In this document: positions 21,701 to 48,726 of the stretch, piece after piece
How positions within the stretch are numbered: position 1 is the stretch's first letter
How the letters are laid out: each line of letters starts with the position of its first letter
NCBI GenBank assembly: GCA_013265495.1
Contig: MU058198.1
Location: 1,252,419 to 1,316,418 of the forward strand
Length of the DNA: 64,000 bases
Origin: Vicugna vicugna
Taxonomy: Eukaryota
Reading direction: 5' to 3'
Position numbers and translations under genes: made by a program
Notes under the pieces: model-generated
Seen by the model: only the letters and a program-made list of their open reading frames with translations
Told to the model about the DNA's origin: nothing
Database searches by the model: none

Positions 21701-24700
21701 TATATTCCCACTCTTGGCACTGAGGTTTTGTTGTGTTATTCAGGATTCTATCAGTTGCAAGTGACAGAAATTCAACTTGAAATTTATTGCTTACACAATT
21801 GAAAAGTCCATGATGGGAGAAGCTTTGTTGTATCTGGTACCAGGCATTCAAATGTTGTGGGCAGGGGTGTCTTTCATCTCTTGACTCTTGCTTTTTCTTT
21901 ATTGGCTTCATTTCTTGAAGTGCTCTTCCTTTGAGAGGGCCCCCAGCATCTCCAAATATATATATATATATTAGCAACTTAGATAATCCCAATGGGAAAA
22001 AAAAACCGCATCTTTTCCCCCAAAGGCACCAGCAAAAGTCTCCAAGTTGATTCTGATTGGACCAACTTGGGTCATATGCCCATGGTTAAATCAATCGCTG
22101 TAACCAGGGGAATGGGGCACTCTGACTGGCCAGTTCTGAGTCATGTAATCAGCCTTGGCAAGAGTGCAGGAAGGATGGGAGGGAGGGCTGCCCTACACCC
22201 ATGTAATGAACTGAATGAGGGAGGAGGGGCTCCCCACAGTAAACTGAAACTGCTCTTACCAGAAAAGGCAGATGGCATAGAATGCATGATACCTGTTTTC
22301 AGCTGTTTTCATTCTGGGGCAGGGAACTAAGGCACGGAGGTTGGTGTGGAAGGAGAACCCAGTTTTTGGAGCTGGGTACAAGACAGAAGCTTGGTCCAGG
22401 GAAAGAAAAACATATTTTTGTGTCCAGGGTAGAAAGAGTCTTCTATAACCCACATTCTCACTGATGCTTTGTCAGCAATGGCAAATTGTCATAGGTGAGT
22501 TTTCTGAGAAGCAAATTCTGGGAAGGAGATTAGCATGCAAAGGTTTATTAGGGAGTGTTTTGGGATCAGCACCTGGAGAAGGAAATGGAGTTGAAGGGAG
22601 AGAAAGGGCAGATGTTATGCAAAACAGACTGTTGGATATTTCTCCAGCAAAAAATGCTTTTTTTCCCAAGATCAGCAAAGAATTACAACTATGGCAAGTC
22701 ATATGCTAGTCCACCTGCAGCAAGGAGAGGTGGAAGGAATTCTTGAAGAGGAGAAAAGGAATTTGAGAGGGCTATAATAAATAGAGTCCAGTGGAGGAAC
22801 TGAGAGTTCAAAATTTGCACTGTATTTTGAACTCTATTGGCTGAGTTGTAACAGTTGCGCATTGACTGAGCTCTTGCCAGGCAAGAAGAGGAAGTTTTTC
22901 TTCTTCCTGTTGGGCTCCGTTATCACCATGAGGCACGAGAGCTCCCCCTGCTGGTCTCCCAACTCTATTTTAATTGAGGTTACTGTTTATTAAGTCTCTT
23001 ACATTATCAAGATCGTATACACTGAGGATCATCTAAAACATTGTATCATCATCACAGGTTTGGTGATAGTCTTCCACCAGGCCTGGTCCAGGTATCTTGG
23101 GAAAGCTTTCTTGTCAGATGTCATTTGCTTTAATTCCAGGAAATGTTTACTTTCAGGTCACCAGATAGGCAGATCCAGGCAGTGTTTGGTGCTTTCTATA
23201 GCAGTGTCACATGAGTCTGAGAGTCTAGTCCCTGGAATTTGGCAGCACAAGAGCTGGTTAGCAATACCTGATAGGAGAGTTTCCAATGGGTTTGAAACAA
23301 ATATTTTTCTGGAGGCATCTTTTTCAATAGACAAAATCTCCAGGTTGCAAGATGTGACGCTCAAGGTCCTCATTCCTTGAGTATGCTCTGTGAAATGATA
23401 TTGCTCTACCAAAACATGGCCATTTTTAATAAAAGCAACTTGGCCTTTGTAATATTGGAGTATCTCTCCTTTTATTAGTTGTGGGTCAAAAGAGGCAGTA
23501 ACCAAAAGAGGAGTTTGGTGTGCCGTGGCTATCTCAAAGAGTGAGAGCTTGTGAGTTCCAAAAGGTGTGGATCTAAGATTTAGAAGGACCAGCGACAATG
23601 CTTTTGGCCACAACATTTGGAAGGCCTCTACAAACTTTGCCAACTGAGTCTTAATAGTGTTGTGAGTGTGTTTGAGTAAACCAGAAGATTAAGGATGGTA
23701 AACACAGTAAAAGTATTACTAAAACCGACCAAACAGGGCAGACCCGTTGAAGTGCCTGACCAGTGAAACAGGCTTCTCAATCACTGTGAAGTTCCCGAGG
23801 CGTCCCGCAAGTAGGGGTAATCATTTCCTATTATATTAACCGCAGAAGAAGCAGTCGCTTGTCTGCAAGGAAAGGCTTCAGTCCAGTGTGAAATATACAG
23901 GCCACGACTAAAACATATTTATATCTATTAAATGGATGCAGTTCTAGTAACTCCATTTGCCAGACCTCAGATGACCCATTAGGCAATTTCAAATCCAGGA
24001 GCAGTAGAAACAGGCTTTCCTGGGTTGTACTTCAGACACATGAGGTAGGCGAGATAAACCTTGTTTTTTGTTTGTTTGTATTTTAGCCTTGTTAATGTTT
24101 CCTCATCAATATTGATCCATAAAGGCTATCATTTTGTCAGCAGACCAATGGCTTAAAACATGTACAGTGGTAAGGACTGGGAAATTTAGAGTGGCTGGAA
24201 GGACTGGGTTGTCCATTGGTCCAAACCAGAACTTTCTCTTTTTATCAAACCAACAATTTTTGAATTTCCCATCTTGTTTTCCTTTTCTGAGGCCAATTGT
24301 TTGGCTTCTTTAGCCAGTTTTTCTAAATTACCATTTTGGGAAATATTCCTGGACCATGACAGAAGTTTGTCTGCTTCGGTCCCTTTAAGACCAGCATTCT
24401 TTGCAGAAATATCAGCAAGGTGATTTCCTCTTGCTTCCAGAGACTCAAGTTTAGAATGCCCTCAGAATCTTAATAATAGCTAAAGCGGTAGACAAAAGTA
24501 TTGCATTCAGTAATTCCTGAACTTAGGGGCCATTTTTTAATTTTATTTCCTCCAGAAGTAAGGAAGCCACATTGCTTTCACAATATTCCAAAATCATGAG
24601 CTACCCCAAAAGCATGTCTGCTATCAGTATAAATGTGGGCAGTTTTGTCCTTGGCTAAAGTTCAAGCTCATGTAAGAGTGTAGAATTCCGCCTGTTGGGC

Positions 24701-27700
24701 AGAAGTAGCCATAGGTAAAGATGCTGCTTCAACAACATTAAAAGGGGTTGCAATATAGTGTACCCAGCACAATATTTGCCCATTGCCACCTTTCAAATAA
24801 GAACCATCAGTGAACTCTGAGAAGTCAATGTTACCCGATGGAATTTCCTGTTGACCGTAACGAGCAAGGAGATGGTTCACCAGCTCTAAGCAGTCATGAA
24901 GGACTTCACTGGTGACAGAGGGGAGAAGAGTAGCTGAGTTGAGGTCACTACGATGGAAAAGAGTTATGAGAGGAGCAGTTCATGAAAGGACTTCATAGGA
25001 GGTGAAGCAGCTGACTGAGAAATGTTGGGTGTGATGAAAATTCAAGAGCTTCTACTGCGTAAGGTACAAAAATAGTTAAAGGGAGTCTTACAATGATTTT
25101 CTCAGTGGCCTTCATCAAAAGGGCAGTGGATGTCATAGCACTAAGGCTAGGGCGGTGTCCCCATGCCACAGGGTCCAGTTGTTCGCTATAATATCCTATA
25201 GGTTGGTGCTGGTCTGCTTTTCAGTGAGTACCCCAGGGGCATTCCCTTCCTTTTCACATACAAAAGGGGGAAAGGGACTCTGATCATTGGGATGCCCAAG
25301 GGCAGGTGGATTGATCAAATTCTCCTTTAAGGCCTTGAAGGCTACGTTATCTGTTTCTTCCCATAAAATTGGGCCAAGGTTGTTATTCTTGAGTAAAACA
25401 TACAGAGATTTGGCCCATAAGAAAGAAATTTGGCATCCGATTCCAGCAATAACTAACTAGCCTGAGAAAACCTCACAGTTGGCACTTAGTTTTGAGTTAT
25501 GGGAAACTTAGGACATTATGAAGTCTACCTGGATCCAAGCATAATCTTTGCTCTGATATCAGATGGCCTAAATATCAAATCATAATCCAGGCAAACTACA
25601 GTTTTTTCCCTGGTGACCTTAAGTCACCAAGGAAAAGTGGACGCTATCTTCCTGTGAAGAGACTGAAGAAGGAGAGTAAGAAACAGAGCATCTACAACAA
25701 AGTGCAACCCGTAGGGAACTTTGTACCATCCAGATCAGTCTTCAGGGTGTGTGAGAATAAAATTCGGAGGCATTACTGTCTAGGAAAATTGTTTTTCTTC
25801 CCAAGTAAGGCAAAAGGCAGCTTCATCATCTGGGGTACTAAAGAATGTGCTGCCTAAGTTAATTATAGTAAATAAATTGCTTCCAGTGGGAATGGATGTC
25901 AGTAGTGATGAGGGTTAGGAGCAGCAGGGTGTGGAGGGATACCAATGTAGTTTATTGCTTGCAGGTTCTGGACAAATCTCCACCCTTGGCCTTTAGGTGT
26001 TCCCATTGGTCCTCAGGGACTAGTACAAGGTAATGAGGCCCTGAGCCTTATCATCTTCTGTGATGGACTTTATGTCTTGAAGCGCTTCTTTACTTTGGGA
26101 TATTGATTAATTCTGGGAAGAAGTTTTGAGGGATCTACTTGAATCTGGATGGGAGGCATGCTGTGAATTTTGCAAATAACTTGTGGAGATTTTGCTCATA
26201 AGGAGGGTGGTAGCTGGTACAATATAGGGACCAATGATCGGTGTTTCCAGAACCAGCTCTAGTCCTATCAGAGACAAAGCAAATAAAAGATGTCAAAGGA
26301 TCATATAACTCATGTTTAATGGCTGCTCTGATGACCACTGTCAAATTCCAGACTTATTTTTCCCTTTGAGAAAGAAATTCTGACGTGAGACTTTGCTAAG
26401 AAGTTCCAGCCTAATAAATGGATAGGGGTAGAGGAACTAAGGCGAAAAGCATTAGTATGTCTCAAAGAGAACAGGTTCAGAGATGGGAACCCCTAAAGGT
26501 TCACTAGAGAGTGCGCTATTTGAGCTGTTCTGGTACTCTGAGACAAGGGTTGCTTGATAGTGTGGTTGAGCACTGAGAGTGTGCTCCTGTGTCAGTTGGG
26601 ACTAGAAGTAATTCAGCCCAAATCTGCAGAAATGTTTCTCCAGCTGATTAAGAGGGAGGACTGGGAAGAGCCCATGGGGTTCCTCAGAGCCCCATCACTG
26701 AGATTTGGGAGAACCTTGGAAAGGTTGGTTGGAGGGCTGAAGGTGCCTGAAGCACTTAAATTTGTGACAATCGCTTTTCCGATGTCCTGGCTCATCACAA
26801 TACTAGCACATTAAGAGGGTTTTATTTTTGTCTGAGAGGCCTTCATTTGCTGGAGTTACAGATTAAGAATTTTGGTCATCTTCCTTCCAGGCCACAGAGT
26901 GTGAGAAAGCCGGTTTACTAGGTTAACTAAATCTGGAGAGGACCTAGTTCCCCATTCCATCCAGGTCCTTTTTACTAGCAGTGCAATGTCCCAGTTCAAC
27001 TCATTAATAAACATAAGAGTTAAAAGCTACCCCAGGTGGAATCAACAGCTAAAGGAAGACCAACGTTTTCTTTAAAAATCATCTGAAGTTGATCGCAATG
27101 GTCATGAACAGATTCATCAGATATTCGTGTGCAAGCTTAAAGTTTGTTCCAATCAACAAGCTTCAGGAAAGCGCTAGGAATTTCTCAGTCAAATCTAGTC
27201 TCATAAGTAGGTTAGCAGATCATATGATGAATTAGCGGACTGTTCTTCTGGTTGCAATTCTAGGGATCGCTCAGGATTTTCCCAGTTTGCAGTTTTTATC
27301 CAATGCTGGACCTGGCCTTCACTGACAAGCATATGAATTAGCTGATACAAGTTGGAGAAACCAGATTGAAAAGTTTGAATTACTATATTAAATTCATCAG
27401 CAAATCTGTGAGAATCTTTGGTTACTTTGGGAAAATCTTTGAATATGGCTCACAGTTCAGCAAATATAAGAAATTAAGGGTTTGGCTTCTGGATCCTCAG
27501 AAAGCTTAATTTTAAAGAGATCGGTTCTGATCAATTCAGAGGAAAAGGGAGTGAGGAGGATTTCAGAGAAAAAGGGAAGTTTGGTGAGAGAATTAGCAGG
27601 GGGCAACTGAGGGTATAGTGGAGGTGCAGGCAGAAAGGAAGGAAGGAGGAAGATGGTATGAAATGGGGCCTGAGCACTAGGGACTGAAGAAGACAGACGA

Positions 27701-30700
27701 GATGGCATCAGGCCCAGAATTTGAGACAAGCCAGGGAAGAAGAGCCAAGGCTTCCGGAGTCATTTTATCTTTCTTTGAATATTTGTTTGCCTCAGTTTAT
27801 TTTAAAATCTTATTTTGCAGAGAGGCAATTTAAGGCTCCTGATAACATTTGGAAGTCTTAAAATATCAATTAAAATTCCAATTTCCATTCAGTTTTGGAA
27901 ATTTAAAGCCTCAGTTACCCAATATGGTCTTAAGAGAATTAAGTTCAGGGATTTCAAAAGCTCTCCATACTGGACATTGATGTTTGAAGTTGTTTTGGGT
28001 TAGGTCTGTCCGTGCGGTTAGAAATGCACATGGATGAGGGCTGTGGTTTTCAAACATAAAATGGACCAGGGTCCCTGGAGGGGGGCCCCCTTAAAATATT
28101 GAGACAACTAGGAATTCTATTTCCTACAGAGTTTTCTCTAGAATAAACGAGTAATTTTCAAACAACAGCGCAAACAACCTGAATAGCCTGCAGGCGTAAT
28201 ACCAGCCAGTTCTAAGAGAATAGTCAGTCTGGTCCCACAAGAGGCAGGCCAAAAGCTGCTGAGGGCAGTTTCAATAGAACAACCCCTATTCCAAACAGAA
28301 TTGGGCCAAAGGCTGAATCAGCACAGTTCCAATTAAATAGCTCCAGTTCCCAGAGGAATAGGCTAAAGGCTAAGTCAGTTTCAAGAAAAACAGCCCCTGT
28401 TCCAAAGAGAATCAGGGCAGAGGTTAGCACAGTTGGGACAGCCTGGTTTTAATATCAGGCCAAAGTTTCAAATGAGTATTTGCATACAGGACACAGCTTT
28501 AACGGAAAGGACAAAACCTTTAAATAAATCTTGAGTAAAACTTGGAGAGCTTCAAAATGCAAAGAGGGTGGAAGCTCAAACCCAGGAGAAAGACATACCC
28601 TCAAACTCCAGGGCTGGCCAGACAGCCGTGAGCAGCAGTGGGCCCAAAGTGGGAACCCCACCTGCTTGCTCACCAGCCCTGGAGTTGTCAAGGGTCTTCT
28701 CTGAACCCCCTTACAGGCCATCAAAATATTGCCCTTAAACAGAGTGCCAGTTATTTCTCCAGCAAAAGTGGGTTTGTTCAGTGTTGGGCCAACTAACATC
28801 CTTCAAAGTCCAAGGACCCCCATTCCTGGGCTCTCAGAAGTTTGCCTGCGATTCCTCAACAGATAAAGTACACTCTTTACTGGGCGTGTTTGCCCTAACA
28901 AACTAGTAGCCCTAGGCAATGTCTAATCTCACAATAGCCCAGGCTGGCTTGTTTCAGCACACCTTATCAGAGTCATATCCCACCACCTTTCCTAGGTAAA
29001 AGGACCCTAAACCTTTTACCTCACCTGCAACCAGTCAGAGACTTGTGCATAAGCCAATCAGGCACCTTGTGACCCAGCCTTATAAAAGACCCCAACAACC
29101 GGCCCTTGGTGCTCGCACAGGCACCTCTAGTCTGTGTGGCCCACTATTGTCTGTGACAGCGTACTCTTAATGAACTCCTTTTCTACTCTTATACTTTATC
29201 TCTGGTAAATTCTTTTACCAATCTGTGTGTCACCGGCTCACTGATTGGCTGCTCTGTTGCATCCCACAACATTCAGGATCAGCAAAGAATTGCATTTTGG
29301 GGTCTGCAACCATGGTGAGCCCTGCTCAAGCCCTCTCCCACAACAAGGAGAGGAGGGCTCTTTTAAAGAGGAGAAAAGGAAGTTGGGAAAACTATCAGAA
29401 ATAAAGAATTCATTGGAGGGGTTGAGAATTTGAAGTATAGAGTGTTTTCATCGGCTGAGTTATGACCATTGCTCATTGGCTGAGCTCTTACCAGTCAAGA
29501 AGGAAAAGGTCTTTCTTCTTCCCGTTGGGCTCTGCGATTAACATAGGAAATGACAGATCCCCCTTCTGGTGTCCTGACTCTATTTTAATTGAGATTTACA
29601 TTTATAACTTTTACCAAGGGAAGGGAAGCGAGGATTGGGTAGAATATGCAATTGCACTGCCTCAGCCAACCCCATGAAGAGTTCTGAAGCTAGGACAACT
29701 TTTTAGGGTTTCCTGAAGGAAGGCGAGGAGGGGGTTCTTACAGCTTATGTAGGTCAGGCACGGATGCAGGCTGCCCTGGGACGGGGGTGTGGCCCTGGGG
29801 GAGATAGCTCTCCTTGGCTGCTGTGCTCCCCAAAGGGGCTTGACAGTGGGGGTGTAAGCCTTTTATTTCTGCTGGGGGATCTAAGTAGCACTTCAAAGAG
29901 TCCATCACACAGACTTTCAGCCTCAAACCGACAGGCATTGCAGCACAGTCTCTGAAATCAAACGGTTACATTCAAAATTTATCTCCATCACTTACTTTCT
30001 CAACAGTTGTTCTGTGCCTCAGTTTCCTTGTCTGTAAAATGGGGATACTGGTGTTACTCCTTCACAGGCTGTTAAGATGATGAGCAAATATTTGTTAGGC
30101 ATAAGGCACTTGGCAGAGTGACCAACACATAATAAACATTTCATAAGTATTTTAAAAGGAGACTAGAAATCCAATCATATTATGAATTTTGAATTGTAAT
30201 TGAGTATTTTGGAGGATCCAGTGGAGGGGGTCCTATCACACAGTATAACAGTGTATTACTCAATAGATGTGTCTCCTTTGACAAGTCTCTCCTCTCAGAT
30301 GCTCCAGGCAGCAGGTGATTTCCACTTTCTCCCTCCTTCCAGTGACTACACCCTCTGTTTTCTTCTTCATGATATGCAGAGTAGCTTTCTTCTTACCCTT
30401 AAACCTGGATCTCCCTGTGGCTTCCTCCTAACCTTTGTCTACACCACAAGGGCCAAATAGGTAAATATTTTAGGCCACACTGTGTTTGTTGCAACTACTC
30501 AACTGCCCTTGTAGTGTGAAAGAAGCCGAAGACAACTGTCAGTAAATGGTGTGAGTGTGTTTAAATAAAACCTCATTTACAAAAACAGAAGGAAGGCTGG
30601 GTTTTGCCCACAGACTATAGTTTGCCAACCCCTGTTCTACCCCTATTGTGATTTTAACAAACTCCTTCCTCGACAAGGCAGTCTTACCTTCTGGGAAAGT

Positions 30701-32235
30701 CCCACATCAGCTGCTAAGAAGCTATGTTTTCTATATCAGTATCCCTATGGTTACTATTTTTATTAACCCCAAGACCATTCGACTCCTAGACCAATGCCTT
30801 GTTAAGCTGAACCACACAACGGGAAGCTTCAATGAACTGTCTTCATCATCCATATTTTAGGATTCAGGAATATTAGAGATGGATGGGTCCTTGATATCAA
30901 ACATTTCTTTTCACAGGTAAGAAAAGTATAAATGGAGGGATTTTATAGTTTTACAAAGGACACACCAACAGGAAATGACTGAGATGGAATTCAAAACCAG
31001 GCTTCCTAACTCTTAGCTGTCTATTCTCTCTAGTCCAGATTAGTAACCACATCTAATATTTTTGAGTATTTACCTTGCTGGAGAGGAAGAAATTTTCTTC
31101 TGCCCTTCTAGGTTCTTCTTACTGATCTAAGTATTTAATCAATATGAGACGAAAGAAAATCAAACAAAAGTTTAATCACATATACGTGGGAAAGACCCAG
31201 GGAACTGAGTGATTTGCGAAAATGGCCAAAGCCCTCACCTTAAGTACCAACTTCAGCTAAATTTTGGCAAAAGAGAATGTTGGGGGTGGTGGTTTGGGAC
31301 CTCAAAAGGGAGGAGAGCAATTCACATAGAGATGGGAAGGCACATGTTTGGTAAATAAATGTTTCCTGGGCCAGGCAGAGACAATGGGACACAGAACACA
31401 CACTGATTTCTAGGCCCTGCCAAGTCTCCCCCACCTGACTAGCCTATGTTCTCTACAGATGTCTCTGATAATAGCTCTATTCTGGGAACATACCCTTTAT
31501 CTAAGTTCTTTTAAGCAATTAAAGGGGAAGTAACAAGAAAAACTTCCCAAGTCTTCTGTTTCATAAAAATAATTAGCCTAAATTAATCTTCATGCCAAAA
31601 AGACACATTTTGGGCTGGCAAATTTTGTTCCCTGACAACCCCATGCCAAGAATTTAGTCTGGGTAATTGCACTTTTCATCACAATAACTCAACAAAGCTA
31701 TTATCCTCCAGTGTATTTAGTGGGAAAATTGAGAAACCAATTTTCAGAAAAAAACAAGTGACCTGGCTGAAGCCAGAGTGGTAAAGGAAAGACTGGAGCT
31801 CGGAGTTGTCTGCTACGTCATGTTGCATTCACCATGCTGCTTCTTCCCCGTCCTAGGGAATGTCAGAGACCAGCTGACTAACCTTAATGTCAAGTTCTAG
31901 CCATTCTCTTCTTGTCCTTGTCCCAGAGCACTTTCTGAAGCTTCTTACTGCACGGGGGGTGGGGGTGGGGCTTCCTTGGGAGTTTTTCAGGCTCAGTCCT
32001 CACTCACGTGGAGTCTTCAGCCTCAAGAGTTTCCTCTCACCCTATAGCAGTTTCTCTGATTAAAAAAAAAAGAAAAAAACAACCCCACCGGGGCACGAAC
32101 AGCCCACTTTGGACTAATTTTTCCCAACAGATGGAGTTCGTCTTGCACCTGCCTAAAACCATCACAGGGAAGATAAACCGGGCGAAGCTTCGCAACGTGG
32201 AGTGGAAGAAGTCTGGGCAAGCTGGGGCCCAGTGA
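592..32235 (+). CDS. ACSM2: Acyl-CoA synthetase medium-chain family member 2 (ACSM2A/2B-like), mitochondrial; complete spliced CDS join(592..768,2846..3056,5835..6042,6821..6964,12475..12631,15236..15315,15518..15641,16792..16872,17884..17985,19919..20046,20168..20267,21335..21454,32131..32235), 578 aa
   Basis: 13 exons joined by hand, all with AG/GT boundaries and consistent phases; 1737 nt open frame ending TGA. Adenylate-forming motifs [33 protein letters not shown] and LPKTITGK are present. N-terminus [32 protein letters not shown] matches recalled ACSM2. Confidence 0.96.
1880..2330 (+). mobile_element. Old L1 3' end fragment (L1MB-like)
   Basis: Typical L1 3' UTR text: tacaatggaatattatttggcc...attatgttaagtaaaataagccagacaaaaaagg...ggagatggatgatggttg; boundaries approximate. 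Confidence 0.75.
2846..3056 (+). CDS. ACSM2: ACSM2 coding exon 2
   Basis: ttcag|[24 protein letters not shown]...[14 protein letters not shown]; donor G|gttggt; 211 nt. Confidence 0.96.
3381..3612. mobile_element. hAT-Charlie MITE (MER58-like)
   Basis: ggtaaactctgacctgtaggccaaatccagcc at one end and aaaagtttgcca at the other resemble MER58 termini. Confidence 0.65.
3620..5210. mobile_element. L2 remnant interrupted by an L1 3' fragment (about 4360-4765) and a SINE
   Basis: Purine-rich L2-type text (ttgggctgagagctggaggatga...ggtcactttgga...tttgagaatcatcaac); approximate. Confidence 0.55.
4387..4512 (+). mobile_element. tRNA-derived SINE (camelid Vic-1 type)
   Basis: agtggtggagtgcctacctagcatgcacaaggtcctggattcaatccccagtgcctcc (B-box-like), followed by a C-run and A tail. 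Confidence 0.8.
5539..5572. repeat. (GT)n microsatellite
   Basis: Direct reading. Confidence 0.9.
5835..6042 (+). CDS. ACSM2: ACSM2 coding exon 3
   Basis: ctccag|[25 protein letters not shown]...[10 protein letters not shown]; donor CG|gtgagt; 208 nt. Confidence 0.96.
6101..6640 (-). mobile_element. Ancient ERVL-type solo LTR (LTR16/LTR33-like) split by a SINE
   Basis: tgtcttagcctgcgttcccaccaaaatcagaaactgagccaag start; homology resumes after the SINE TSD; right end approximate. Confidence 0.5.
6247..6399 (-). mobile_element. tRNA-derived SINE (camelid Vic-1 type) with 13-bp TSD
   Basis: Minus strand gggagggtattgctcaag...cttagcatgcacaaggtcctgtgttcaacccccagtgcctcc; TSD aagagtttattat at 6234-6246 and 6400-6412. 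Confidence 0.88.
6821..6964 (+). CDS. ACSM2: ACSM2 coding exon 4 (AMP-binding P-loop)
   Basis: tgtcag|[54 protein letters not shown]; donor GA|gtaaga; 144 nt. Confidence 0.96.
8966..12250 (-). mobile_element. L1 with 5' UTR, ORF2 fragments and 3' UTR, internally deleted (no ORF1, no RT core)
   Basis: 5' end tcaagatggtggag near 12240; GC-rich 5' UTR 11090-12240; ORF2 pieces ([17 protein letters not shown]-terminal [12 protein letters not shown]); poly-T and 3' UTR from 8966. Confidence 0.85.
12475..12631 (+). CDS. ACSM2: ACSM2 coding exon 5
   Basis: tctcag|[26 protein letters not shown]...VDPQVILK; donor AAG|gtaaga; 157 nt. Confidence 0.95.
13045..13416 (-). mobile_element. MaLR solo LTR (MLT1A-like)
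   Basis: tgctataacaaaatcccacagatggggtggcttaagcaa...gagatcagggtgccagcatagttggg...cattcagtccataaca. Confidence 0.75.
13430..13790 (-). mobile_element. Old L1 3' fragment (L1ME-like)
   Basis: gcctggcttctttcattcaatg...ttgatgggcattggggttatttccagtttgggactatt. Confidence 0.65.
15236..15315 (+). CDS. ACSM2: ACSM2 coding exon 6
   Basis: ctccag|[32 protein letters not shown]; donor AG|gtgatg; 80 nt. Confidence 0.94.
15518..15641 (+). CDS. ACSM2: ACSM2 coding exon 7
   Basis: cttcag|[23 protein letters not shown]...REFYGQTET; donor ACG|gtacct; 124 nt. Confidence 0.95.
16792..16872 (+). CDS. ACSM2: ACSM2 coding exon 8
   Basis: ccacag|[33 protein letters not shown]; donor CAG|gtttgt; 81 nt. Confidence 0.94.
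17884..17985 (+). CDS. ACSM2: ACSM2 coding exon 9
   Basis: ctccag|[40 protein letters not shown]; donor GTG|gtgaga; 102 nt. Confidence 0.95.
19919..20046 (+). CDS. ACSM2: ACSM2 coding exon 10
   Basis: taccag|[27 protein letters not shown]...[11 protein letters not shown]; donor GG|gtaagc; 128 nt. Confidence 0.95.
20168..20267 (+). CDS. ACSM2: ACSM2 coding exon 11
   Basis: ctgcag|[40 protein letters not shown]; donor GAG|gtgatg; 100 nt. Confidence 0.95.
20300..20520 (+). mobile_element. MIR SINE
   Basis: ggcaagctacttagcttctctgtgcctcagtttaccatatgtaagatg MIR core. Further MIR fragments lie near 14530, 17570, 18730-19000, 29945-30150, 33400-33630, 42960-43180, 46320-46470, 52700-52840 and 58375-58600. 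Confidence 0.8.
21335..21454 (+). CDS. ACSM2: ACSM2 coding exon 12
   Basis: ctgcag|[46 protein letters not shown]; donor AAG|gtaagg; 120 nt. Confidence 0.95.
21733..22190. mobile_element. Old MaLR LTR (MLT1J/K-like)
   Basis: tcaggattctatcagttgcaagtgacagaaattcaactt...tctgattggaccaacttgggtcatatgcccatgg. Confidence 0.55.
28706..28723 (-). other. Degenerate primer-binding site, tRNA-Ile(AAU)-like
   Basis: Minus strand TGATGGCCTGTAAGGGGG versus TGGTGGCCCGTACGGGGA (complement of the tRNA-Ile 3' end, recalled): 14/18; lies 3 nt inside the 5' LTR edge. Confidence 0.6.
28782..29271 (+). mobile_element. Solo LTR (490 bp) nested inside the ERV 5' LTR
   Basis: TGTTG...CAACA inverted termini; TSD ttcag at 28777-28781 and 29272-29276; CCAAT near 29054 and TATAAAA near 29082 on the + strand. 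Confidence 0.88.
30440..30635. mobile_element. hAT-Charlie MITE (MER58-like)
   Basis: aagggccaaataggtaaatattttagg...gactatagtttgccaacccctg. Confidence 0.7.
31076..31637 (-). mobile_element. ERV1 solo LTR (MER34-like)
   Basis: TG...CA ends; approximate TSD acct/accc; reverse-complement homologue of 38107-38672. Confidence 0.75.
32131..32235 (+). CDS. ACSM2: ACSM2 terminal coding exon 13
   Basis: caacag|[40 protein letters not shown]; contains the catalytic-Lys motif PKT-TGK; 105 nt. Confidence 0.94.
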
Positions 32236-34551: not shown

Positions 34552-35169
34552 TGCGGGGGGCCACTCATAACCTGAGGACTGCCGAGCACAGAGGTTGGGC
34601 CTAAACTCCCACAGTGCAGGGCGTCAGGCTCTGAGGTTGATTCTAACAAAGACAATCTCTGTCCCGCCACCCCTTTGAAGAATGCACCAGGTGCATTAGA
34701 GCCTGAGGAACATCCTGAGCTATTAAGTCACTAAGGACCTTTGGAAGGAGAGATACAATCGACACACAAGTTAGTGATCTTAGCCTGAAGAACAATCACC
34801 TGAGTGAATAGTACACGAGTCACGATGTTAGCTTAGAGGAACAATACCTTAGTTTATGATCTTGGTTTCGGGAACAGTTAATCTTAGTTTATTGAGAACT
34901 GTAAACAATAATGATGTCTGTAACAATATACAAGTTAATGATTTTAGTACACGATGTTAATGTACCCTAAAACAATACCNNNNNNNNNNNNNNNNNNNNN
35001 NNNNNNNNNNNNNNNNNNNNNNNNNNNNNNNNNNNNNNNNNNNNNNNNNNNNNNNNNNNNNNNNNNNNNNNNNNNNNNNNNNNNNNNNNNNNNNNNNNNN
35101 NNNNNNNNNTCTTTCTTTTTCCTGCAGCACAGGTTTCTGGACCTGATCGATTGTCGGCTGGCTCCGACA
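34552..35169 (+). mobile_element. Young LTR element (class II/betaretrovirus-like by its 6-bp TSD) spanning an assembly gap
   Basis: TG...CA termini; perfect TSD taggag at 34546-34551 and 35170-35175; retains CpGs; host L1 ORF1 resumes after it. Confidence 0.8.
34980..35109. other. Assembly gap (130 N)
   Basis: Run of N. Confidence 1.
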
Positions 35170-38106: not shown

Positions 38107-38672
38107 CATAGGGGAATAAAATTCATGACCCCAAAATGTGTAACTCTGGAATAAGGATTAATTTAGACTGATTATTTTTAAGAAACAGAAGCCTCAGAAG
38201 TTTTTCTTGTTATCTCCCCCTTCACTGCCTAAAATGATTTAGATAAAGGTCCTGTTCTCAGAAAAAGCTATCAGCAGAGACATCTGCAAAGAATATGGGC
38301 TAGTTGTGGTGTGGGAAGCCCAGCAGGGCCTAGACATCAGTATCCACTCTCTCTTATTGTCTCTGCCTGGCCCAGAGAATGGTTATTTACCAAACATTTG
38401 CTTTTCCATCTCCATGTGAATTGTCTTCCTTCTCTTCTGAAGACCCAAACCCCCACCCTCAACATTTTCTTTTGTTGTTGGCTGAAGAAGGCATTTAAGG
38501 TGAGGGCTTTGGCCATTTTGGAGGTAAAATCAGTTTTCCTGGGTCTCTCCCATTTATATGTTTTATTAAACTTTTATTTGATTTTCTCCTGTTAATCTAT
38601 CTCATGTCAATTTAATTCTTAGATAAGCCAGAAGAACCTAGAAGTATAGAAGGTAATTTTTCCTCCCTCACA
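38107..38672 (+). mobile_element. ERV1 solo LTR (MER34-like)
   Basis: ccccaaaatgtg...attatttttaagaaacagaa...gaagaacctagaag...tttttcctccctcaca; same family as 31076-31637. Confidence 0.72.
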
Positions 38673-40084: not shown

Positions 40085-41823
40085 AGATGCAACATGGATG
40101 ACTGAAGTTTGAGAAACATTAGCATAAGAATGGGGCAAGCTTACAGAGGAGAAGGGAAGGGATGAGGCCAAAATGAAAATCCGAAAGAAAAGACAAGTAG
40201 TGTCATCTTTCCTGAAAAGAAGTAGCCAAGGATCTGTGTGGAAAGCAGCTAACGTAGAGTTGAAGGTATGAGCTTGAGTTCTGTTACTACAGAGGATGCC
40301 CTGCTCACTTTAGTCCTCAGTTTCTCATCTGAGAAATGGGAGTGACCCAACATCTCCACGGGGATGCAGTAGACATTCATGGATATCATGCCAGTGGAAG
40401 GACCTCACAGGGTTCAGGGGAACACCTAAGAAGAGGTTCAAGTTTTAGAGATGTGAGAGTGAGGAACTGAAGTGGGGGCCAAGAGAGTGAATGTGCTCCC
40501 AGCCAGACTGGGCACAGCAAACCAGCTGTGTGAACTCTGATCAGAAGTAACATCTTCTTTAATTTAACTACCCTTAACTAAACTTTCAGTCGACCGAGAG
40601 AGCCAGTCTGCCCACAGATGGAGAAACAGAGGGGAGGAGTAAGCAGGGTGGGATCATTTGCTCAGAAGAGCAGGAGTACTTACAGAATCTAAGATCCAGC
40701 TTTTTGGTAGAGTCATGACTTTTTTTGTTGTTTTTTTTTTTTCTCCACCCACTCATGGGTACCATTCCATTGCCCACATCTCTCCAAGGCCTGGGAACCC
40801 TGAAAAGAAGAGGGTCCTGGGATAAGAGAAACAGAGACCCCTGGGGCTTTGAGCTGGATAGGGAGCCTCTCCCACAATTGGTTTGGAAGGTCCAGATGTC
40901 CCAGGAAGCCCCACAGAGGGTGTGACAGAATGGATATCTGAAACCCGCAATACAGAAAGGGCCCTACAGAGAGTCAGGCTCTCCGCCATAACTTGATATT
41001 ACTAGCTCCCCACGTGGTGTCCAGGACTATTGAGTCAGAGGAAGAGATTATAGAGAATTCGTATCAGCTCTTAAATGCCTTAAGCCAGAAGTGACATGTG
41101 TCACTTCCACCTGGAGTGCATTGTCCAAAATTGGAATTCAATAGCTTCCCCTAACTCCAGAAGAAGCTTGGAAATGAGAGAGACATGCAAGTGGAATCTT
41201 CAGAGAATTCTACTGTATGCCATACACCCATTGTTAGGGTGAGAAAACTGAGGCACAAAGGGATAAGAGAACTGCTCAGTGTCATGGACCTGGTAACTGG
41301 TAAAGGCCAGGCTGAAACCCAGGCTGCTGGCCCCAGCGCCTGTCTTCCGGACCGGAACACTGGTGTTAGTTCCACACGAGAGATTTCTTGAGATCCAGAG
41401 ACTGTCTCATGCACTGTTCCTCCTGTTCCCATTATCTTCTCAAAGGTGACTGCCTCTTCTGTTTGACTAACAGGGTTTCTTGTACTTTATAATCTTTAGC
41501 TTACTGTAGCCAGTCAACTTGCCCTGCCTTCTTACTTGCTCCTCTCCGTAACAGGAGTCTAACCTGAGCTGAAATTTCATCATGAACACATCGGCCAGGA
41601 GGAGCAAGACCCACATCTCGGAAGTCAGGCTTGCCCCTCAGCCCTGGCAGGGGTGTTCTAGTAGTCTCCAGCGATCTTTCATGGTGGCTTTGAGCAGAGG
41701 TATTTTTCTCCCTGGTTCAATGGAGGTTGAGAGGGAAAAGGTGATGGGAAAGTTGGACCAGGATACTGGAGATCCCCCACCTCCTAACCACACCCCAAAT
41801 TGTCTCTAGACATTTTGTTAGAA

Positions 41824-41880
41824 ATACTGTCTATGAAACACTTGGGCTAGGTCTTGGACTGGGACTTTGCACGTTCAGTT
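41824..41880 (-). repeat. 57-bp perfect inverted copy of 42820-42876
   Basis: Base-by-base reverse complement matches 57/57. Confidence 0.95.
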
Positions 41881-42819
41881 GTTAGACAACTAACAAATAG
41901 TTGTTAGAAAACTAACAAGCCACTACCTGTGACATTCCAGGCTTACCTAATGTAGCATCAATCCAGAGTCTACATGCCTGAGCCAGGTGCTTTGCAGACT
42001 GTACATCCTACAGAGCTTTCAAAGATCACATGGAACCAATCTTATTAACAACCACCCACTCCTCCATTTTTCGGATGACAATATCAAAATTAGAAGAGGT
42101 AAATGGCTTGCCACGGGCCACCTTGTAAGTGGCTGTGCCAGGATTCAAGCTCCAGACTTTGGGATTCCAAAGACCGTGCATTGTTCGAGTACACCAAACT
42201 GTTTCTCTTAAAATCCTGAGTTAATAAAACAGCGCACGTGGATTATGTTTGCATTGTGCTATGTACTTTTCATGTATTATTTCATCTAACAGTAATAAAG
42301 ACAGCAACAAAGAACTACCGCCGGAGACAGGTGTCACTGTTATCACTCCCATCTCACAGAGAAGGAAACTGAAGACTAGAAACAGGAGGTCCATGAAGGT
42401 CAAAAAGATGTAATGGCAGACCTGAGGCTTAAGCCCAAAACTCCCCACCCCCACAGCACAGGCTGTAATGACTAGCCAACACTGGCACTTGGCTGTCATT
42501 CAAATGAAAATATTGGACGTACTGGACTGGGGAGGAGGAGCAGGTTAGCCTCAGAGAACTTGCAAAAGTGCTCCATTTGGCTTAATTTATTCATTCACAC
42601 TGCAAGGCATGCCCACAAGAATCGGAGAGTACTTTATAGTTTGTTTTTCGAACTGATTTTTTCTCTCCATGGGAGCTTGTGATTGCTTTCTGCCCTTTTC
42701 TATGTGAGTATCTCCTCCCCCTTTGAATGATTCAATTCCTGCCAGGTTCTCCACCCCCAGCGGTGGCCAGGAACTAAGTCCTGTTATGTGAACACTCCTG
42801 GGAACTTCTGATCAGAGAG

Positions 42820-42885
42820 AACTGAACGTGCAAAGTCCCAGTCCAAGACCTAGCCCAAGTGTTTCATAGACAGTATCAGGTAAGA
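42820..42885 (+). promoter_or_regulatory. Candidate ACSM1 regulatory element or upstream exon end: HNF4-like CGTGCAAAGTCCC followed by strong donor CAG|GTAAGA (42879/42880)
   Basis: CAAAGTCC core fits the HNF4A motif and ACSM genes are liver/kidney expressed; no transcript evidence available. Confidence 0.35.
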
Positions 42886-43184
42886 CAAAGGTGAATGACA
42901 CCTTATTTGGGAGGGAATGTGTGTGTGTGTGTGTGTGTGTATCTGTCACAGGGCAGCAAAGTGTATACAGAGCCTTGAACTTAAAATCTGAAGGCCCAAT
43001 TTCAAATTCTGGCAATGCCACTTACAGACCTTGGGCACGTCTGTTAACTTCTCTGACAGTTCATTTCCTTTACTGCAAAATGAGAATGATGGTACTGAGT
43101 GAGAGGGATTGATGCGAACATAAATGTCATATGCCTAGCACCATGGCTGGCTCATAGGTGATCGACTGAATGTTAGACAGCTCA

Positions 43185-43344
43185 CCAAGTGTGGTGAGAT
43201 GCATTCCAGTTAAACTCACAGTCTCGTTAGTTGAAGAATTCAGAGCAATGTCAACTTGCTACCCCGTGATTAGAACTTAACACTTGATCACAATTACCTG
43301 AGTGTGTACCAGATACTTTTACCTGCTATCTGGTTTCTTAAATG
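43185..43344 (-). repeat. 160-bp inverted copy of 46401-46560
   Basis: Ungapped reverse-complement alignment, 153/160 identical. Confidence 0.95.
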
Positions 43345-44235
43345 TGGTGAGCTGTGCAAGGAGGGTGCTAAGGGGAATAAAAAAGACCCAGAAGATCAAC
43401 ACTGGAAAGAAAACTCCACTCTGCAGAAGTTTGTTCACATTATACAAAAAAAAAAAGTTTTTAATTATCTAATTTGGGGGTTGGCTTCAGAATTTGCTGG
43501 GAGCTAGAGAGCACCTCAACATGTTATTGAGCCCTTATTGTAAAAGTGTCATGTAGATTATCTCACTAATCTTTGTGGAAGCCAGATAGCAGGCATTATG
43601 ACTGTGCCCCCCAAGGTCAGAGGCGTAAATGGTGGCCAGGACCTCTTAGCTGGTAGACAGTGGAGTCGAACCTGGCTCTGTAACACTAGGACCCCCTATA
43701 ACACACTAAGTATGTTGCCTCAGAAGATAAATAGCTTTTCCAGTCCGAATGCTTGTTTGCAGGACCTCTTGGCACTGTGTACCAGTCATGTGGGATTGGG
43801 TCCATCTAATGCCTTCATTTTAACTTAATTACCTCATTAAAGATTCTGTCTCCAAACAGAGTCGCATTTTGGGGTGCTGAAGGTTGGGATTTCAACACAT
43901 GAAATTTGAGGGGACACCATTCAGCCCACAGCAAAGGATTCGCTTCCTCATTATTACTCTTCCTTTCGTTTTGGCTTTTAGCCACTTATTAAAGTGTTGT
44001 GTACGCTCTCCTTGAGTATTTTAAGGAAGATCCTGAGGTTACTTACATGCCTTTGTATAAAAAGAGCAACTGATATTCTTGCTCTAACTCAGCTCATGCC
44101 TGTGGAGGGAGGTATGTGTTGGGAAAAAATAGCAGAGAAGGCAGGCTTTTAGAACCAATTCTGCTACTAAGTTTGTCTTGCAACCTAGGGGAAATTCCTG
44201 TCCCTCTTGGGATGTTGGCCAAATCAAGATTTTTA

Positions 44236-44268
44236 TTTTATTTTATTTTTTTATTTTTTTTTTTTATT
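44236..44268 (-). mobile_element. Poly(A)-only retroinsertion (AATAAA plus A tail) with 15-16 bp TSD
   Basis: caaatcaagattttta at 44220-44235 and 44269-44284 flanks a T-rich tract; minus-strand target reads TTT/AAAAA. Confidence 0.8.
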
Positions 44269-45989
44269 CAAATCAAGATTTTTAAAGTCAAAGATCCCCA
44301 AGGATTGGACAGGTACAGTAAATGGAGAAGCAGGTGGGTGTGACAAAATGAGAAGTGGCAGAAACTATGTCAAATTAGAGAACCTTCCATGTAAATTGAG
44401 CAGACAGTTCTCAGCTCCAGTCAGTTGGTACCAAGTTGAAATGAAACCCCAATGTTGCTGGACCTTCTAAGCTTTCAGGAGAACTCTTCAAGGCTTTTAA
44501 ATAAAATCTCCTAAATTTTAAATGTTGGCAATTCAAAATTTTTCCTCCAAAGACTGAGGGCTAAAGGTAGTATGTCTGAAGACCAGGTTATGGGCCAGCT
44601 AATATCTTAGGATCTTTCTTCCTTCAAGTGCTCTGATAAAACAAAAGACAGTACTGTTGACTGACAGGCACTGAAATGGAAGGGGGCATACTTTAGTTCA
44701 CGTGGCCCAAGGATCCACACTGTCAAGCAGGGACGAAACTAAGGGATGAAACTTTCACATACCTCTCCTCTTTTCTGCAGACAGACAATAGCAGTGTTCT
44801 GAGGACAGCAACAAAATTAACTGGCATTAGGTTACTATGGGTCTAAACAAGTTGAAAATAAATTGAGTCAAGTTTTACCAATCTATTCTACAGGTCTGTT
44901 GTCAGGCAGTATCATCTTACTGCTGAAACTGAGGAGGAGGGAGCTTAATTGTTTACCATGATAAAGTGCTTGAACCTCAAGACTATTTCTGACGTGGCTT
45001 TCTTCCAATTTTCGCAATCAAACTTTAAGAAGGGCCCTAATACATGAGAGTTTCACTCCCAGGTAGAAGCATTTGTTGGGATCTGGAGTGACAAGTTTTA
45101 CTTCATGGGTCAAGTGATAGATCGGTAATCGTTGCCTGGAATGCTGTCCTGGGAAAGACCCTGGTGTCAGACCCCAATCCAGTAGGGAAGTCGCTGTGAT
45201 ATTAGCCTCATCTGTCCTGAGTATGGTTGGGCATATTTGTCAATATTCTTATAGCCCCAAGTGACGGGACCCCAGTCTCAGGCAGGAAAAATTGCTGGCT
45301 CATCGAATTCAGTTCAGGATATTAACAAGAGAAGTGAAGAGGGGCCTCAGGAATAGTATGAACCAGCAAACTGAATGCCTCTGAGATACTCTCTGCTCCT
45401 TATTTCTATGAAAATTTTACACAAACATTTTGGAGAGGGATTATGACTCGCCCAGTTTGGATTTTAAAAAATCTTGGGAAATGACTGCTTGACTCTGGAC
45501 CAATCAACTTTGGACAGGTGGTGGAATCATTTAAAAACTTGACAGTTTCCATGAGAACCACATATTTGGGTTCAGTGGGAAGAGAGACCTCCAGAGCAAG
45601 GGTAGTATGAGATACAGGACTTTCAAAATGGTGAGTTTCTACCAAAATGAGGGCTACATGGCTGCCATCCCGGGGGGTGAGGGAGAACAAGAAGACCCTC
45701 AGGGATGCGTGCCAACCTTATCTAGTAGCTACAGCCCTGCCCCATCATTTTTTTTTTTGCCTTGTGATTCCTCAGTTGAGAAGAGAAATCCCACCTAAAT
45801 CAGTAAGTTGTGCCTTCCAAATTCCAATGAGCTCAAACAAAGCCATCACTCTAGCAATTAACCAGGAATATGCCTTCATTTTGCAGAGGAAACTCCTGCT
45901 CCAGCGATCAACCTATTTGCCATCTCTTCCCAAGGCAGGTGGTGAGCTGAGAATTCTGTGCCTGCTTCCTGAGGACTGCTCCACCCACC

Positions 45990-46181
45990 ATGCAATGGCT
46001 AATGAACTTCCGAGTCCTCCGGGGCATCCTCAAATCCTTCCATGGCTTCCACCCTGCCCCTCAGCGCCTGTGCAGACGGTTTTTATCAGGACCTGGAGAC
46101 CCCAGCTGGAATGACTACGTTAGACCCAAGGAATTTAATTTTGCAAGTGATGTAGTAGATTACTGGGCTCAAATGGAAATG
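45990..46181 (+). CDS. ACSM1: ACSM1 coding exon 1 (acceptor probably caaggcag| ending 45938)
   Basis: MQWLMNFR...[16 protein letters not shown]; donor ATG|gtaagg; 192 nt. Confidence 0.94.
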
Positions 46182-48726
46182 GTAAGGAGGCACCCTTGAT
46201 GGGGGTGGTGAGAACAGGATTTGCTTCACTGGTCTTATCTTGCCCCTTAGAAGACTCAGGGGCACCGAACCAAGAACAGCTTCTGACTGAGCTTGTAAGT
46301 GCCCTGAGAAAAGCTTATGTTTGGGGGTTCAATTCCCAGCTTGGACATTTCCTCAATTCTCTGAGCCCCAGTGGTTTTACCTGTGAAATGGAGATAATTT
46401 CATTTAAGAAACAAGATAGCAGGTGAAAGTATCTGGTACACAGTCAGGTAATTGTGATCAAGTGTTAAGTTCTAATCACAGGGTAGCAAGTTGACGTTGA
46501 TCTGAATTCTTCAACTAACAAGACTGTGAGTTTAACTGGAATGCATCTCACCACACTTGGACTTGACTTCAGGATACATCCACAGGGAGGGGACTCCTGA
46601 TTGTGCACGTGAACACCTGACACATAACTAAGTCATATCATCTGTCTTCCTATGAGGATAGCAAGTGCAGCTGTGGTGCTCCCCATCAGATACAACCATG
46701 AGCGTGGCTTCAGGGTGTGTCCAGGGAATCCAGTCTCTGTGGTCTCTGCTGAAAGACACACATGCTTGGTTTGTCTTTTCCCAAGAGACAGACCACGAGA
46801 GAAGTGGTGACACTAGGATTTGGGATGGACAATGGGTGGTGTTCCAGCTACTAAATTCCAGCAGGTGATGTTCACATCGTGAAAACTCACTCAATGCTGT
46901 CTTTGTACAGAAGACTGAATTCACCTGAGGTGGAGGCAGAGAGTTGATGTATTTTTAATTTCCCATAAACAAACGTTCGTAGGTTAGCATTCGAAGCTTA
47001 TGTGCCTTTCACAGGGACTTCTTCCCTACCTCCTTCTTTTTCCTTTTTCTGAATTTTCATGGTAACTCCAGGGAAAATAGAGCCCTCAGTTAGGAAGAGC
47101 ATTTTTTAATGTGCCATGTTGAGAGCTTTGCATTTAATATTCTGATTAGATGGGCACATTTATTATCCTCACTTTCTAAATGGGGAACCTGAGGTTCCAA
47201 ATGTTCAAAGAACCTACAGAATAAGCCAAACAAGTGAAGAAGCAGGATTTAGGTCCAGGCTGTTGGGTTCTATGATCCTCTGCCTAATCTGGCCTCACAA
47301 TCTGATCATGTCAAAACATTTCTGCCTTCAGACTATAAACTGACTTTCATCACTGCCCATCCCAAAAGTCTGGTTAAGACCTTTTGAATCACAAGGTGGG
47401 CCAGAGAGGGAGGACACAGAGAAGGCGAAGCGATGCCATCACTTTTCTCTGCATTTATCTTCATAAAAAGTCCTACACATAAACCCATGGAGATAATAAC
47501 CGAGTGAACATTTGCCCAGAGAATCCCCCATCTTTGTTAGGTTTTATATCACCTTTTTTTAGTCATTGTCAGTTCCTCCATATCTTCACATTTTTCGTAT
47601 CCCCAGCATCCCCATCTCATTAATGTTCATTCTCACAACACTTCTGACCTGTCTGCTTCTACTTTTCCAATTGTCTTAATGAAGATCAGTGTCTCTCGAG
47701 TGACGTGTGGGCCTGACACTTAGCTGTCCCTTAGTACACTTTTGTGTCATTAATTAATTTTGAAACTTACCTTGTAAGCACAAAAGACCTTCCAGAGGGC
47801 ATGAGTGCTCTCCAGATACCAGAGTCCATGCCGGCTTCCTGTGTGACCCCTTACAACTTAACAAACATCACTGATCCATAGCCTAATGAACAACACAACC
47901 CAGATCATAACAAATTACATAATTTATTTTGACTCCATTTTCAACGCATTACACTTGTAAAACCTTTAAGTTAGAAATCTAACAGTTTACTGTGATTTTT
48001 TTTAAGTGTAAGACAGCCAACACAGGTCCAAGGGTGGAATAGAGTCACTTATTCAGGCCACCAATTTATAACCCCTGACTGTCCTTGGAAATTAAACCTT
48101 ATATCAATTTCTAAGGCCCCTAGGCTCCTAGAATATTACACGTCAGTTGATTCCTGGAGTAGCCTCCCACATCTATTCATGAGAAGTCACATTCATGTCC
48201 AAAATCATTCATTCTGTCTCTTTGATACTTCATTCATTCATTCAGTTAAGATTCAGTGAATACCTAACATGCGCCAAAGCATTGTTCTAGAAAATAGGGG
48301 TAAAAAAGTAAACAACATACAATTCTTCATTTTTCCTCTTTGGACAGTGTGATTCTCCACTTCATGTCCCAGGATAGGTAAGCACAGCATTAAGTGATAT
48401 TAACTTCTGTTTGTTTCGGCAAAAGTCATGACAGAAGCAAATTTGTCCTACCAATGTTGATGCAATTTAGTATTAAAATATTGCTCAATCAGTGTAAATA
48501 TCTACAAACCACAAAGCTTAAGAAAAGCAACAGCTCAATGTCATTGCCACATAACGTCTGGCTCTTTGCTCTATAATATTTCCCAAAAGAAATTGATTTA
48601 TATGCTGACAAACTTTCTAAATTTCTTAATATGCAATAGTCATGTCTGTCTAGATTTTTTTCTGGGCCAGTGGGTCTGTGTTTTGTGGTTCTTGAATTTA
48701 AATCAATCTATCTGTCTGTCTATCTG

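Follow-up and report, generated by a model that had tools for sequence, protein, structure and literature searches.

Why does the 5′ end of ACSM1, a fat-metabolism gene, carry two short inverted duplications about 1.3 kb apart in Vicugna vicugna? An earlier note on the window (the whole 64,000-nt stretch of DNA analysed) proposed that short palindromes had been struck in two independent events of different age, marking a cruciform hotspot patched with neighbouring DNA. Both duplications, referred to below as A and B, are real, unique in the window and have downstream templates; most likely they are ordinary DNA-repair scars. Repair by copying neighbouring DNA fits them well and corresponds to a known class of mutation; a cruciform hotspot is possible, though unsupported by the evidence presented here.

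Pair A comprises 57 nt in inverted orientation without a single mismatch (41824–41880 and 42820–42876), the two copies being separated by 939 nt. The following features surround it:

41815–41824, + strand: left junction of event A, the first 10-nt direct-repeat copy, equal to the left arm and part of the loop of the small hairpin
41824–41880, − strand: insert of event A, a perfect inverted copy of 42820–42876
41881–41900, no strand assigned: extra 20 nt of event A, non-donor, a further hairpin copy
41901–41918, no strand assigned: hairpin A, with a 7-bp stem and a 4-nt loop (−4.4 kcal/mol), containing the second 10-nt repeat copy
42820–42876, + strand: donor of A, stopping 3 nt short of a strong splice-donor-like site
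42877–42885, + strand: candidate 5′ splice site of a putative untranslated ACSM1 exon, proposed from its consensus match

The last base of the left junction provides a 1-nt microhomology with the donor, and the direct repeat crosses the insert (41815–41824 = 41901–41910). Of the 86 extra bases at this site, the donor accounts for 57, the repeat for 9 and the further hairpin copy for 20. These 20 nt decompose into 6–8-nt inverted copies of adjacent bases (41886–41891, 41890–41897 and 41898–41904) and belong to a 22-nt near-tandem repeat (41877–41918). The donor is not flanked by repeats longer than 3 nt. It contains an 8-nt match (42831) to an HNF4-type core, which also matches three further places on the + strand.

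Pair B is longer and less perfect: 160 nt, inverted (43185–43344 and 46401–46560), with a gap of 3056 nt and seven mismatches (four transitions and three transversions; three of the seven at CpG). Its features are as follows:

43177–43187, + strand: left arm of event B, the exact reverse complement of 43345–43355, with its final 3 nt inside the donor-matching tract
43185–43344, − strand: insert of event B, an inverted copy of 46401–46560 that includes the first 9-nt repeat copy (43190–43198)
43343–43355, + strand: right junction of event B, with a 2-nt exit microhomology, the second 9-nt repeat copy and the right arm of an 11-bp inverted repeat
45990–46181, + strand: first ACSM1 coding exon, enclosed by the arms of B and oriented as the five later exons found
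46401–46560, + strand: donor of B, within the intron downstream of that exon

A direct repeat is present here as well (43190–43198 = 43343–43351), and a 9-nt stretch of the donor (46547–46555) is an inverted match to the right flank of B. Junction repeats of 9–10 bp, as reported in the earlier note, thus exist at both sites; however, 43185–43198 is the reverse complement of 46547–46560, so that the first copy at B is wholly donor-matching. A single simple architecture, claimed for both events, was not confirmed: A carries 20 non-donor nucleotides and the first repeat of B is donor sequence. Flanking repeats longer than 4 nt are absent from the donor of B.

Both donors lie downstream of their inserts and are intact. 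Direct repeats bracket only the copies at 41.8 and 43.2 kb, from which we infer the direction of copying. A test of this direction through SINE continuity was negative, the first 100 nt of donor B together with an adjacent SINE-like core aligning no better than shuffled sequences (129 of 300 reached the score); the flanking repeats are therefore the sole basis for it. Junction microhomology amounts to 1 and 2 nt at A, and to 2 nt and 3–14 nt (model-dependent) at B. Comparable pairs are absent elsewhere in the window, where the longest other match among the non-simple exact matches listed is 28 nt with copies 45 kb apart, in agreement with the earlier observation. The difference in mismatches (0/57 versus 7/160), previously taken as one of age, is not significant (Fisher p = 0.19 two-sided, 0.11 one-sided), and the 95% divergence intervals overlap (0–6.3% for A, 1.8–8.8% for B). 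The ages are inseparable, so the independence of the two events is undemonstrated: one linked episode and two separate ones are indistinguishable.

Reads from a Hi-C library (run X2) were sampled to about 2/100 of the run, yielding 23 reads, or about 1×. At this depth joints, gaps and loose ends all fell below the three-read threshold, and three differing bases were listed; the reads seem to come from a close relative rather than an outgroup. At A, the coverage in 71-nt bins (0.37 + 1 + 0.76 on one track, 1 + 0.92 on the other) fits at least one 151-nt read spanning both junctions, giving about 1× support for A. Near B, the bins add up to a read length under one reading (38 + 61 + 52 = 151 nt) and are ambiguous, fitting either an empty-site read or a Hi-C read that stops at a restriction site. 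When the first coding exon was compared with metagenomes, 207 stretches matched, and none was confirmed as a mammalian orthologue. In a separate metagenome search with a 20-nt flank, the one locus returned was rejected as a chance match, lying in a contig of 64% GC with no further similarity.

The ACSM1 product is the same as that of alpaca at 329 of 330 residues, in line with a South American camelid genome. The earlier designation of the region as the presumed promoter was not confirmed: the observed-to-expected CpG ratio is at most 0.34 in all 13 bins, and a CpG island is absent. The splice-donor consensus match at 42877–42885 is one of ten on the + strand of the window. A literature search for the ACSM1 promoter, or for ACSM1 in alpaca, returned nothing useful, which is not proof of absence from print. 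The interval also contains SINE-like relics and a poly-T insertion flanked by 16-nt repeats.

We propose that A and B are probably germline scars of microhomology-mediated template switching, either MMBIR-like or polymerase-theta-like, in which hairpins were made or lengthened by fold-back. A stalled or broken strand end would pair through a few bases with the opposite strand 1–3 kb downstream and copy 57 (A) or about 160 (B) bases backwards. Short fold-back copies of the strand's own end would follow, creating or lengthening the junction hairpins, and the strand would rejoin slightly behind its departure point, which would leave the 9–10-nt direct repeats. At B, one workable bottom-strand path would depart at 43343 through the 2-nt microhomology and copy from 46401 through to 46560. 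The strand would next fold back, held by a 3-bp stem, pair again with the departure sequence over 7 nt, copy the rest of the arm and rejoin at 43176. The order of these steps and the ancestral sequence are modelled, and the scars are presumed neutral. Direct observations agree with this proposal: exact inverted local templates with intact donors, a shared polarity, microhomologies of 1–3 nt at three junctions, and the resolution of the extra 20 nt at A into inverted copies of neighbouring bases. Several points stand against it. The fold-back path for B has more steps than insertion into an existing hairpin; the variant loop base in the middle unit of A could also have arisen by duplication and a single substitution; two uniformly placed sites in 64 kb fall within 1.3 kb of each other with only about 4% chance; and both junctions have a 4-nt loop, reported as the most mutable size (PMC5737083).

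A different order of events was implied by the earlier note, in which the hairpins came first: a stalled fork or an extruded cruciform would break and be repaired with downstream sequence, and this would have happened twice, independently, at a local hotspot. We consider this unlikely. Collapsing the direct repeats does give clean hairpins with a 4-nt loop at both sites (stems of 7 bp at A and 11 bp at B), which upholds the palindromes described before, but as reconstructions and not as observed empty sites. Stems of at least 7 bp with 4–5-nt loops occupy only 0.45% of the window, and the reconstructed B site (63 nt, −13.6 kcal/mol) is equalled by 3 of 3000 random 60-mers, while 11-bp stems like that of B occur twice elsewhere in the window. 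The reconstruction of A, in contrast, is unremarkable, with 9% of 3000 random 60-mers equally stable, and the hairpin there is weak, of a size that is common in the window (50 stems of at least 7 bp lie outside the event zones). A pre-existing hairpin at B would further require, besides an 11-bp stem, a 14-nt chance match between target and donor, found within 5 kb at 3 of 1500 random sites; if the hairpin was made by fold-back, a 9-nt match suffices, and such matches occur at 75% of 1500 random sites. Judged from these sequence statistics, hairpin B, although unusual, may therefore be more cheaply explained as a product of repair. The extra 20 nt at A also find no explanation if hairpins came first, and both the independence of the events and the promoter position are presumed. 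In great apes, template switches mainly create stable hairpins, with a smaller structural signal in the ancestral sequence (PMC7954356); the smaller signal favours pre-existing hairpins, as does the reading of the depth bins near B as an empty-site read. For rearrangement breakpoints, however, the excess at short inverted repeats is very slight (PMC5737083). The hairpins at the insertion sites may thus be by-products of repair and not its cause.

Template switching is also compatible with a variant in which a single multi-switch episode made both A and B, with no recurrence, and we regard this as a tentative possibility, somewhat less remote than that of pre-existing hairpins. The two pairs lie close together, share polarity and cannot be told apart in age; the right junction of A and the left junction of B are alike at 16 of 21 bases in register (equalled in 7 of 1200 random zones), and 41887–41896 has a 10-nt match in donor B, equalled by 25 of 1559 random 160-nt tracts. 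Both similarities, however, were spotted post hoc among several comparisons, the middle unit of A has a local explanation, and the probability of finding 0/57 mismatches at the rate of B is only 0.06–0.08. RNA-templated patching in cis, with a broken end priming reverse transcription on nascent ACSM1 RNA, appears quite improbable. It would account for inserts antisense to ACSM1 with downstream donors, and for a donor of A that ends just before a splice-donor-like site; insertions templated by RNA have been described (PMC5110952), and bull testis is a tissue in which the ACSM1 protein has been found (PMC12211342). Nevertheless, neither insert has a spliced junction or poly(A), DNA template switching predicts the polarity equally well (a 1-in-4 chance for two events), and the start site and germ-cell expression in camelids are presumed. 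Its fullest form, marginally less credible still, holds that two patches were made at small hairpins in the 5′ end of ACSM1, in the camelid germline, by reverse transcription of the gene's nascent RNA, insert A being an almost complete antisense copy, 1 kb upstream, of a first exon of about 60 nt (start near 42820, splice donor 42879). Inverted duplications can flank inversions, and a staggered-break inversion of 41881–42819 that left the 57-nt duplication at both ends could in this way have produced A; it would make the 10-nt direct repeat across the insert a coincidence, and we find it very improbable. For B, inversion of the interval was rejected because the exon inside it runs in the same direction as the rest of ACSM1. 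The perfection of copy A and the presence of an N gap in the window (34980–35109) might suggest an assembly artefact, which is extremely unlikely given the 4.4% divergence of the B copies and the depth bins, whose sums agree with 151-nt reads that span A from junction to junction. An L1-type insertion was rejected for A and B alike, as neither insert ends in poly(A) or poly(T); a T run (41813–41816) is followed by G.

As they stand, A and B form a tidy example pair of a common mutation class, with a caution attached: a palindromic "empty site" obtained by collapsing junction repeats can itself be a product of repair. If both hairpins did come first, the locus would be direct evidence that hairpins of 7–11 bp attract kilobase-range templated insertions in the mammalian germline. 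If insert A were a reverse copy of the first ACSM1 exon, it could duplicate regulatory sequence, and RNA templating, if true, would make the locus a naturally occurring, inherited trace of break repair on an RNA template.

Several known systems resemble A and B. Templated sequence insertion polymorphisms (TSIPs) of classes 1 and 2 likewise place a patch of DNA from an intact donor at a new site, with microhomologous junctions in class 2 (PMC5110952). However, class 1 depends on an L1 target site and a poly(A) tail with its signal, neither of which is present at A or B, and TSIP donors are distant, while those of A and B lie within 3.1 kb, outside the definition of class 2. Short junction-side fold-back copies in new repeats, like those in the middle unit of A and the arms of B, are known from SD-MMEJ snap-back by polymerase theta (PMC5728401) and from yeast fold-back inversions (PMC11724301); the inverted copies of 6–8 nt in 41886–41904 and of 11 nt at 43177–43187 are of the snap-back kind. 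Templates in those systems lie within about 30–50 bp of the break, whereas here 939 and 3056 nt separate the inserts from their main donors (about 30 bp in PMC5728401), so an extra jump beyond SD-MMEJ or fold-back is required.

Among 1,019 humans, 277 inverted duplications have been reported, with a median of 284 bp and mostly 1–15 bp of microhomology (PMC12350158). They are small like A and B and similar in their microhomology, but their annotation was restricted to a 2-kb span at the insertion, while donor B is 3.1 kb off; the available text of that report makes no mention of hairpin targets. In the four-point model of template switching, when point 4 precedes point 1 the strand comes back to a position before the one it left, which yields a direct repeat and a single reverse-complement insertion, with hairpins arising in the descendant (PMC7954356), as proposed for A and B. 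A direct repeat from a return behind the departure point is clear at A (10 nt); at B the first copy matches the donor as well. Inserts in that study have a median of 12 nt and a maximum of 128, from templates tens to hundreds of bases away, whereas A and B have inserts of 57 and 160 nt whose templates are 0.9 and 3.1 kb distant. Human germline templated insertions of at least 25 bp (MMB-TIs) number about 100 per person and include several switches in 33/103 and 26/99 cases (PMC8421209). A and B differ from them in lying 1.3 kb apart and in that the empty allele was not seen in reads at about 1×. They share with the "complex" class of MMBIR-type MMB-TIs an inverted nearby template, short junction microhomology, several switches per event, and heritability without large rearrangement. 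Taken together, A and B fit a known class, that of local inverted templated insertions formed through microhomology-mediated template switching.

Two inverted duplications lie at the 5′ end of ACSM1. Pair A (41824–41880 and 42820–42876) spans 57 nt and is identical, and pair B (43185–43344 and 46401–46560) spans 160 nt with 7 mismatches and no gaps. The earlier note had found nothing similar elsewhere in the window, and indeed the longest non-simple exact match listed outside A and B is 28 nt, with copies 45 kb apart. The 10-nt and 9-nt direct repeats it described are likewise present, and collapsing them leaves palindromes with 7-bp and 11-bp stems, both with 4-nt loops. Flanking repeats (9 nt direct, 8 nt inverted) occur only at the 41.8 kb and 43.2 kb copies, the other copies having at most 4 nt; because the repeats bracket only those copies, we regard them as the inserts. 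An independent check of copying direction by SINE continuity failed, with 129 of 300 shuffles scoring equally well.

The gene setting comprises:

45990–46181, + strand, first coding exon of ACSM1, by match to ACSM1
592–32211, same strand as ACSM1, a paralogue that we take, from knowledge of the locus, to be ACSM2-like

The six ACSM1 exons found all lie on the + strand; over them the window equals alpaca ACSM1 at 329/330 residues and two dromedary records at 308/330 and 309/330, which identifies the source as a South American camelid. In the ACSM2-like gene, about 10.7 kb separate the final coding exon from the preceding one (21460–32119). A strong splice-donor-like site at 42879 (one of 10 such matches on the + strand of the window), acceptor candidates at 45886 and 45938, and the single ACSM1 sequence shared by three alpaca protein accessions are compatible with a candidate untranslated upstream exon. 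Should this exon exist, A would be located upstream of it or within it, and B in the intron that follows. A search for a CpG island in the ACSM1 5′ interval found none. The interval does contain transposon traces, among them SINE-like relics that are presumably MIR:

41956–42162, SINE-like relic
42251–42429, SINE-like relic
42989–43176, SINE-like relic, its end at 43176 set by us
46345–46405, SINE-like relic

At 44220–44284, a 33-nt T-rich tract lies between identical direct repeats of 16 nt and has an L1-type target sequence; it resembles a retrotransposition insertion consisting of the tail alone. Farther away, minus-strand frames at about 23100–25500 resemble, by eye, endogenous retrovirus pol fragments; they are flanked by direct copies (22718–22981 and 29341–29596, matching at about 72% over 267 nt and separated by 6.6 kb), possibly old terminal repeats. 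An old inverted pair, 31083–31632 and 38112–38665, matches at 76% over 566 nt with 6.5 kb in between and probably represents two copies of the same interspersed repeat.

A and B are most likely scars of microhomology-mediated template-switch repair, with hairpins made or lengthened through fold-back copying. The matches and microhomologies are observed; we infer the ancestral state, in what order the steps occurred, and neutrality. In A, 86 extra bases separate the two copies of the 10-nt repeat: 9 belong to the repeat, 57 derive from the donor, and the other 20 make up an additional hairpin copy, recognisable as a 22-nt near-tandem repeat. These 20 break down into inverted copies of neighbouring bases:

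41886–41891, inverted copy of 41877–41882
41890–41897, inverted copy of 41814–41821
41898–41904, inverted copy of 41886–41892

Part of the 20 bases could also be explained by a duplication and a single substitution. Hairpin A has little stability (−4.4 kcal/mol), its reconstructed site is matched in folding by 9% of 3000 random 60-mers, and the rest of the window holds 50 stems of at least 7 bp, which occupy 1.7% of the window; in our judgement, the hairpin's presence before the event is about an even call.

The hairpins bear directly on the earlier note's account, a hotspot where pre-existing hairpins were broken and patched. The reconstructed B site speaks for it, being very stable (−13.6 kcal/mol, equalled by 3 of 3000 random 60-mers), but stems of at least 11 bp are rare, with only two elsewhere in the window. 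Moreover, of the two copies of the 9-nt repeat at B, the first sits within the donor-matching tract, which starts 5 bases earlier, so a hairpin present first would require target and donor to share 14 bases by chance. When both strands were searched within 5 kb, 3 of 1500 random sites had a 14-base match and 75% a 9-base one. The left arm of B (43177–43187), the exact reverse complement of 43345–43355, may instead have arisen in repair as a fold-back copy, which would require only the common 9-nt match (46547–46555 to the right flank) and annealing steps of 2–7 nt. These statistics lower the probability of the hotspot route rather than exclude it, as repair favours longer microhomologies and the fold-back route has more steps; we consider the hotspot rather unlikely. 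RNA-templated repair, for which a report in human cells is listed (PMC12065846), would, if it acted in cis here, agree with both inserts being antisense and with donor A stopping 3 nt short of the candidate splice site, and is nevertheless improbable, while an inversion at A is more improbable still.

A variant of the template-switch explanation is that one linked episode made both inserts. The different ages proposed earlier do not hold up statistically (0/57 versus 7/160 mismatches, p = 0.19 two-sided and 0.11 one-sided, 95% intervals overlapping); at B's rate, A would be free of mismatches with a chance of 0.08, or 0.06 with CpG sites handled separately. The right junction of A (41880–41900) and the left junction of B (43171–43191) agree in register at 16 of 21 bases, including an exact 9-mer, a likeness equalled by 7 of 1200 random zones, and may reflect such an episode. 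The middle unit of A (41887–41896) also matches donor B over 10 nt (46512–46521), as do 25 of 1559 random 160-nt tracts. Both features were spotted post hoc and only hint at a link. Two sites placed uniformly come as close as 1.3 kb in 4% of cases, a figure to be read in the light of the window having been chosen for its cluster. We hold a single episode to be a tentative possibility.

An assembly artefact is hardly credible. At 4.4%, the divergence between the copies of B is larger than an assembly duplication would show. Roughly 2% of Hi-C run X2 was covered, and 23 reads aligned to the window, 18 of them at 95% or above. Deduced from summed depth bins rather than a listed alignment, support for A amounts to one 151-nt read over 41758–41908 in one track and at least 136 unbroken bases over 41784–41919 in the other. 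Near B (43095–43398), bins of 38, 61 and 52 nt sum to 151 nt and are ambiguous: they would be one read without the insert, matching exactly the empty site of the earlier note, or chimeric Hi-C reads whose ends fall at restriction sites, the 52-nt stretch ending at one (43394–43397) and the 38-nt stretch starting at another (43095). No joint was listed among the 23 reads. X2 differs from the window at 42447 and 42464–42465 in 4/4 reads, and the assembly has a gap of 130 N at 34980–35109.

Comparable events are described in the parts of the literature cited here. Each person carries about 100 germline templated insertions of at least 25 bp with microhomology, between a quarter and a third of them multi-switch (PMC8421209), and among 1,019 humans no inversion class is more frequent than inverted duplications (277, median 284 bp; PMC12350158). 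Template switches in great apes leave one insertion plus a direct repeat when the return point comes before the departure point; the rise in stable hairpins is steep in the descendant sequence and smaller in the ancestral one (PMC7954356). Where short inverted repeats have 4–5-nt loops and 7–15-bp stems, substitutions rise about 1.35-fold and indels about 2-fold, with only a very slight increase in rearrangement breakpoints (PMC5737083). The junctions of A and B behave like those of SD-MMEJ, whereas both events lie outside its short-range criterion; they also fall under neither the class 1 nor the class 2 TSIP definition (PMC5110952).
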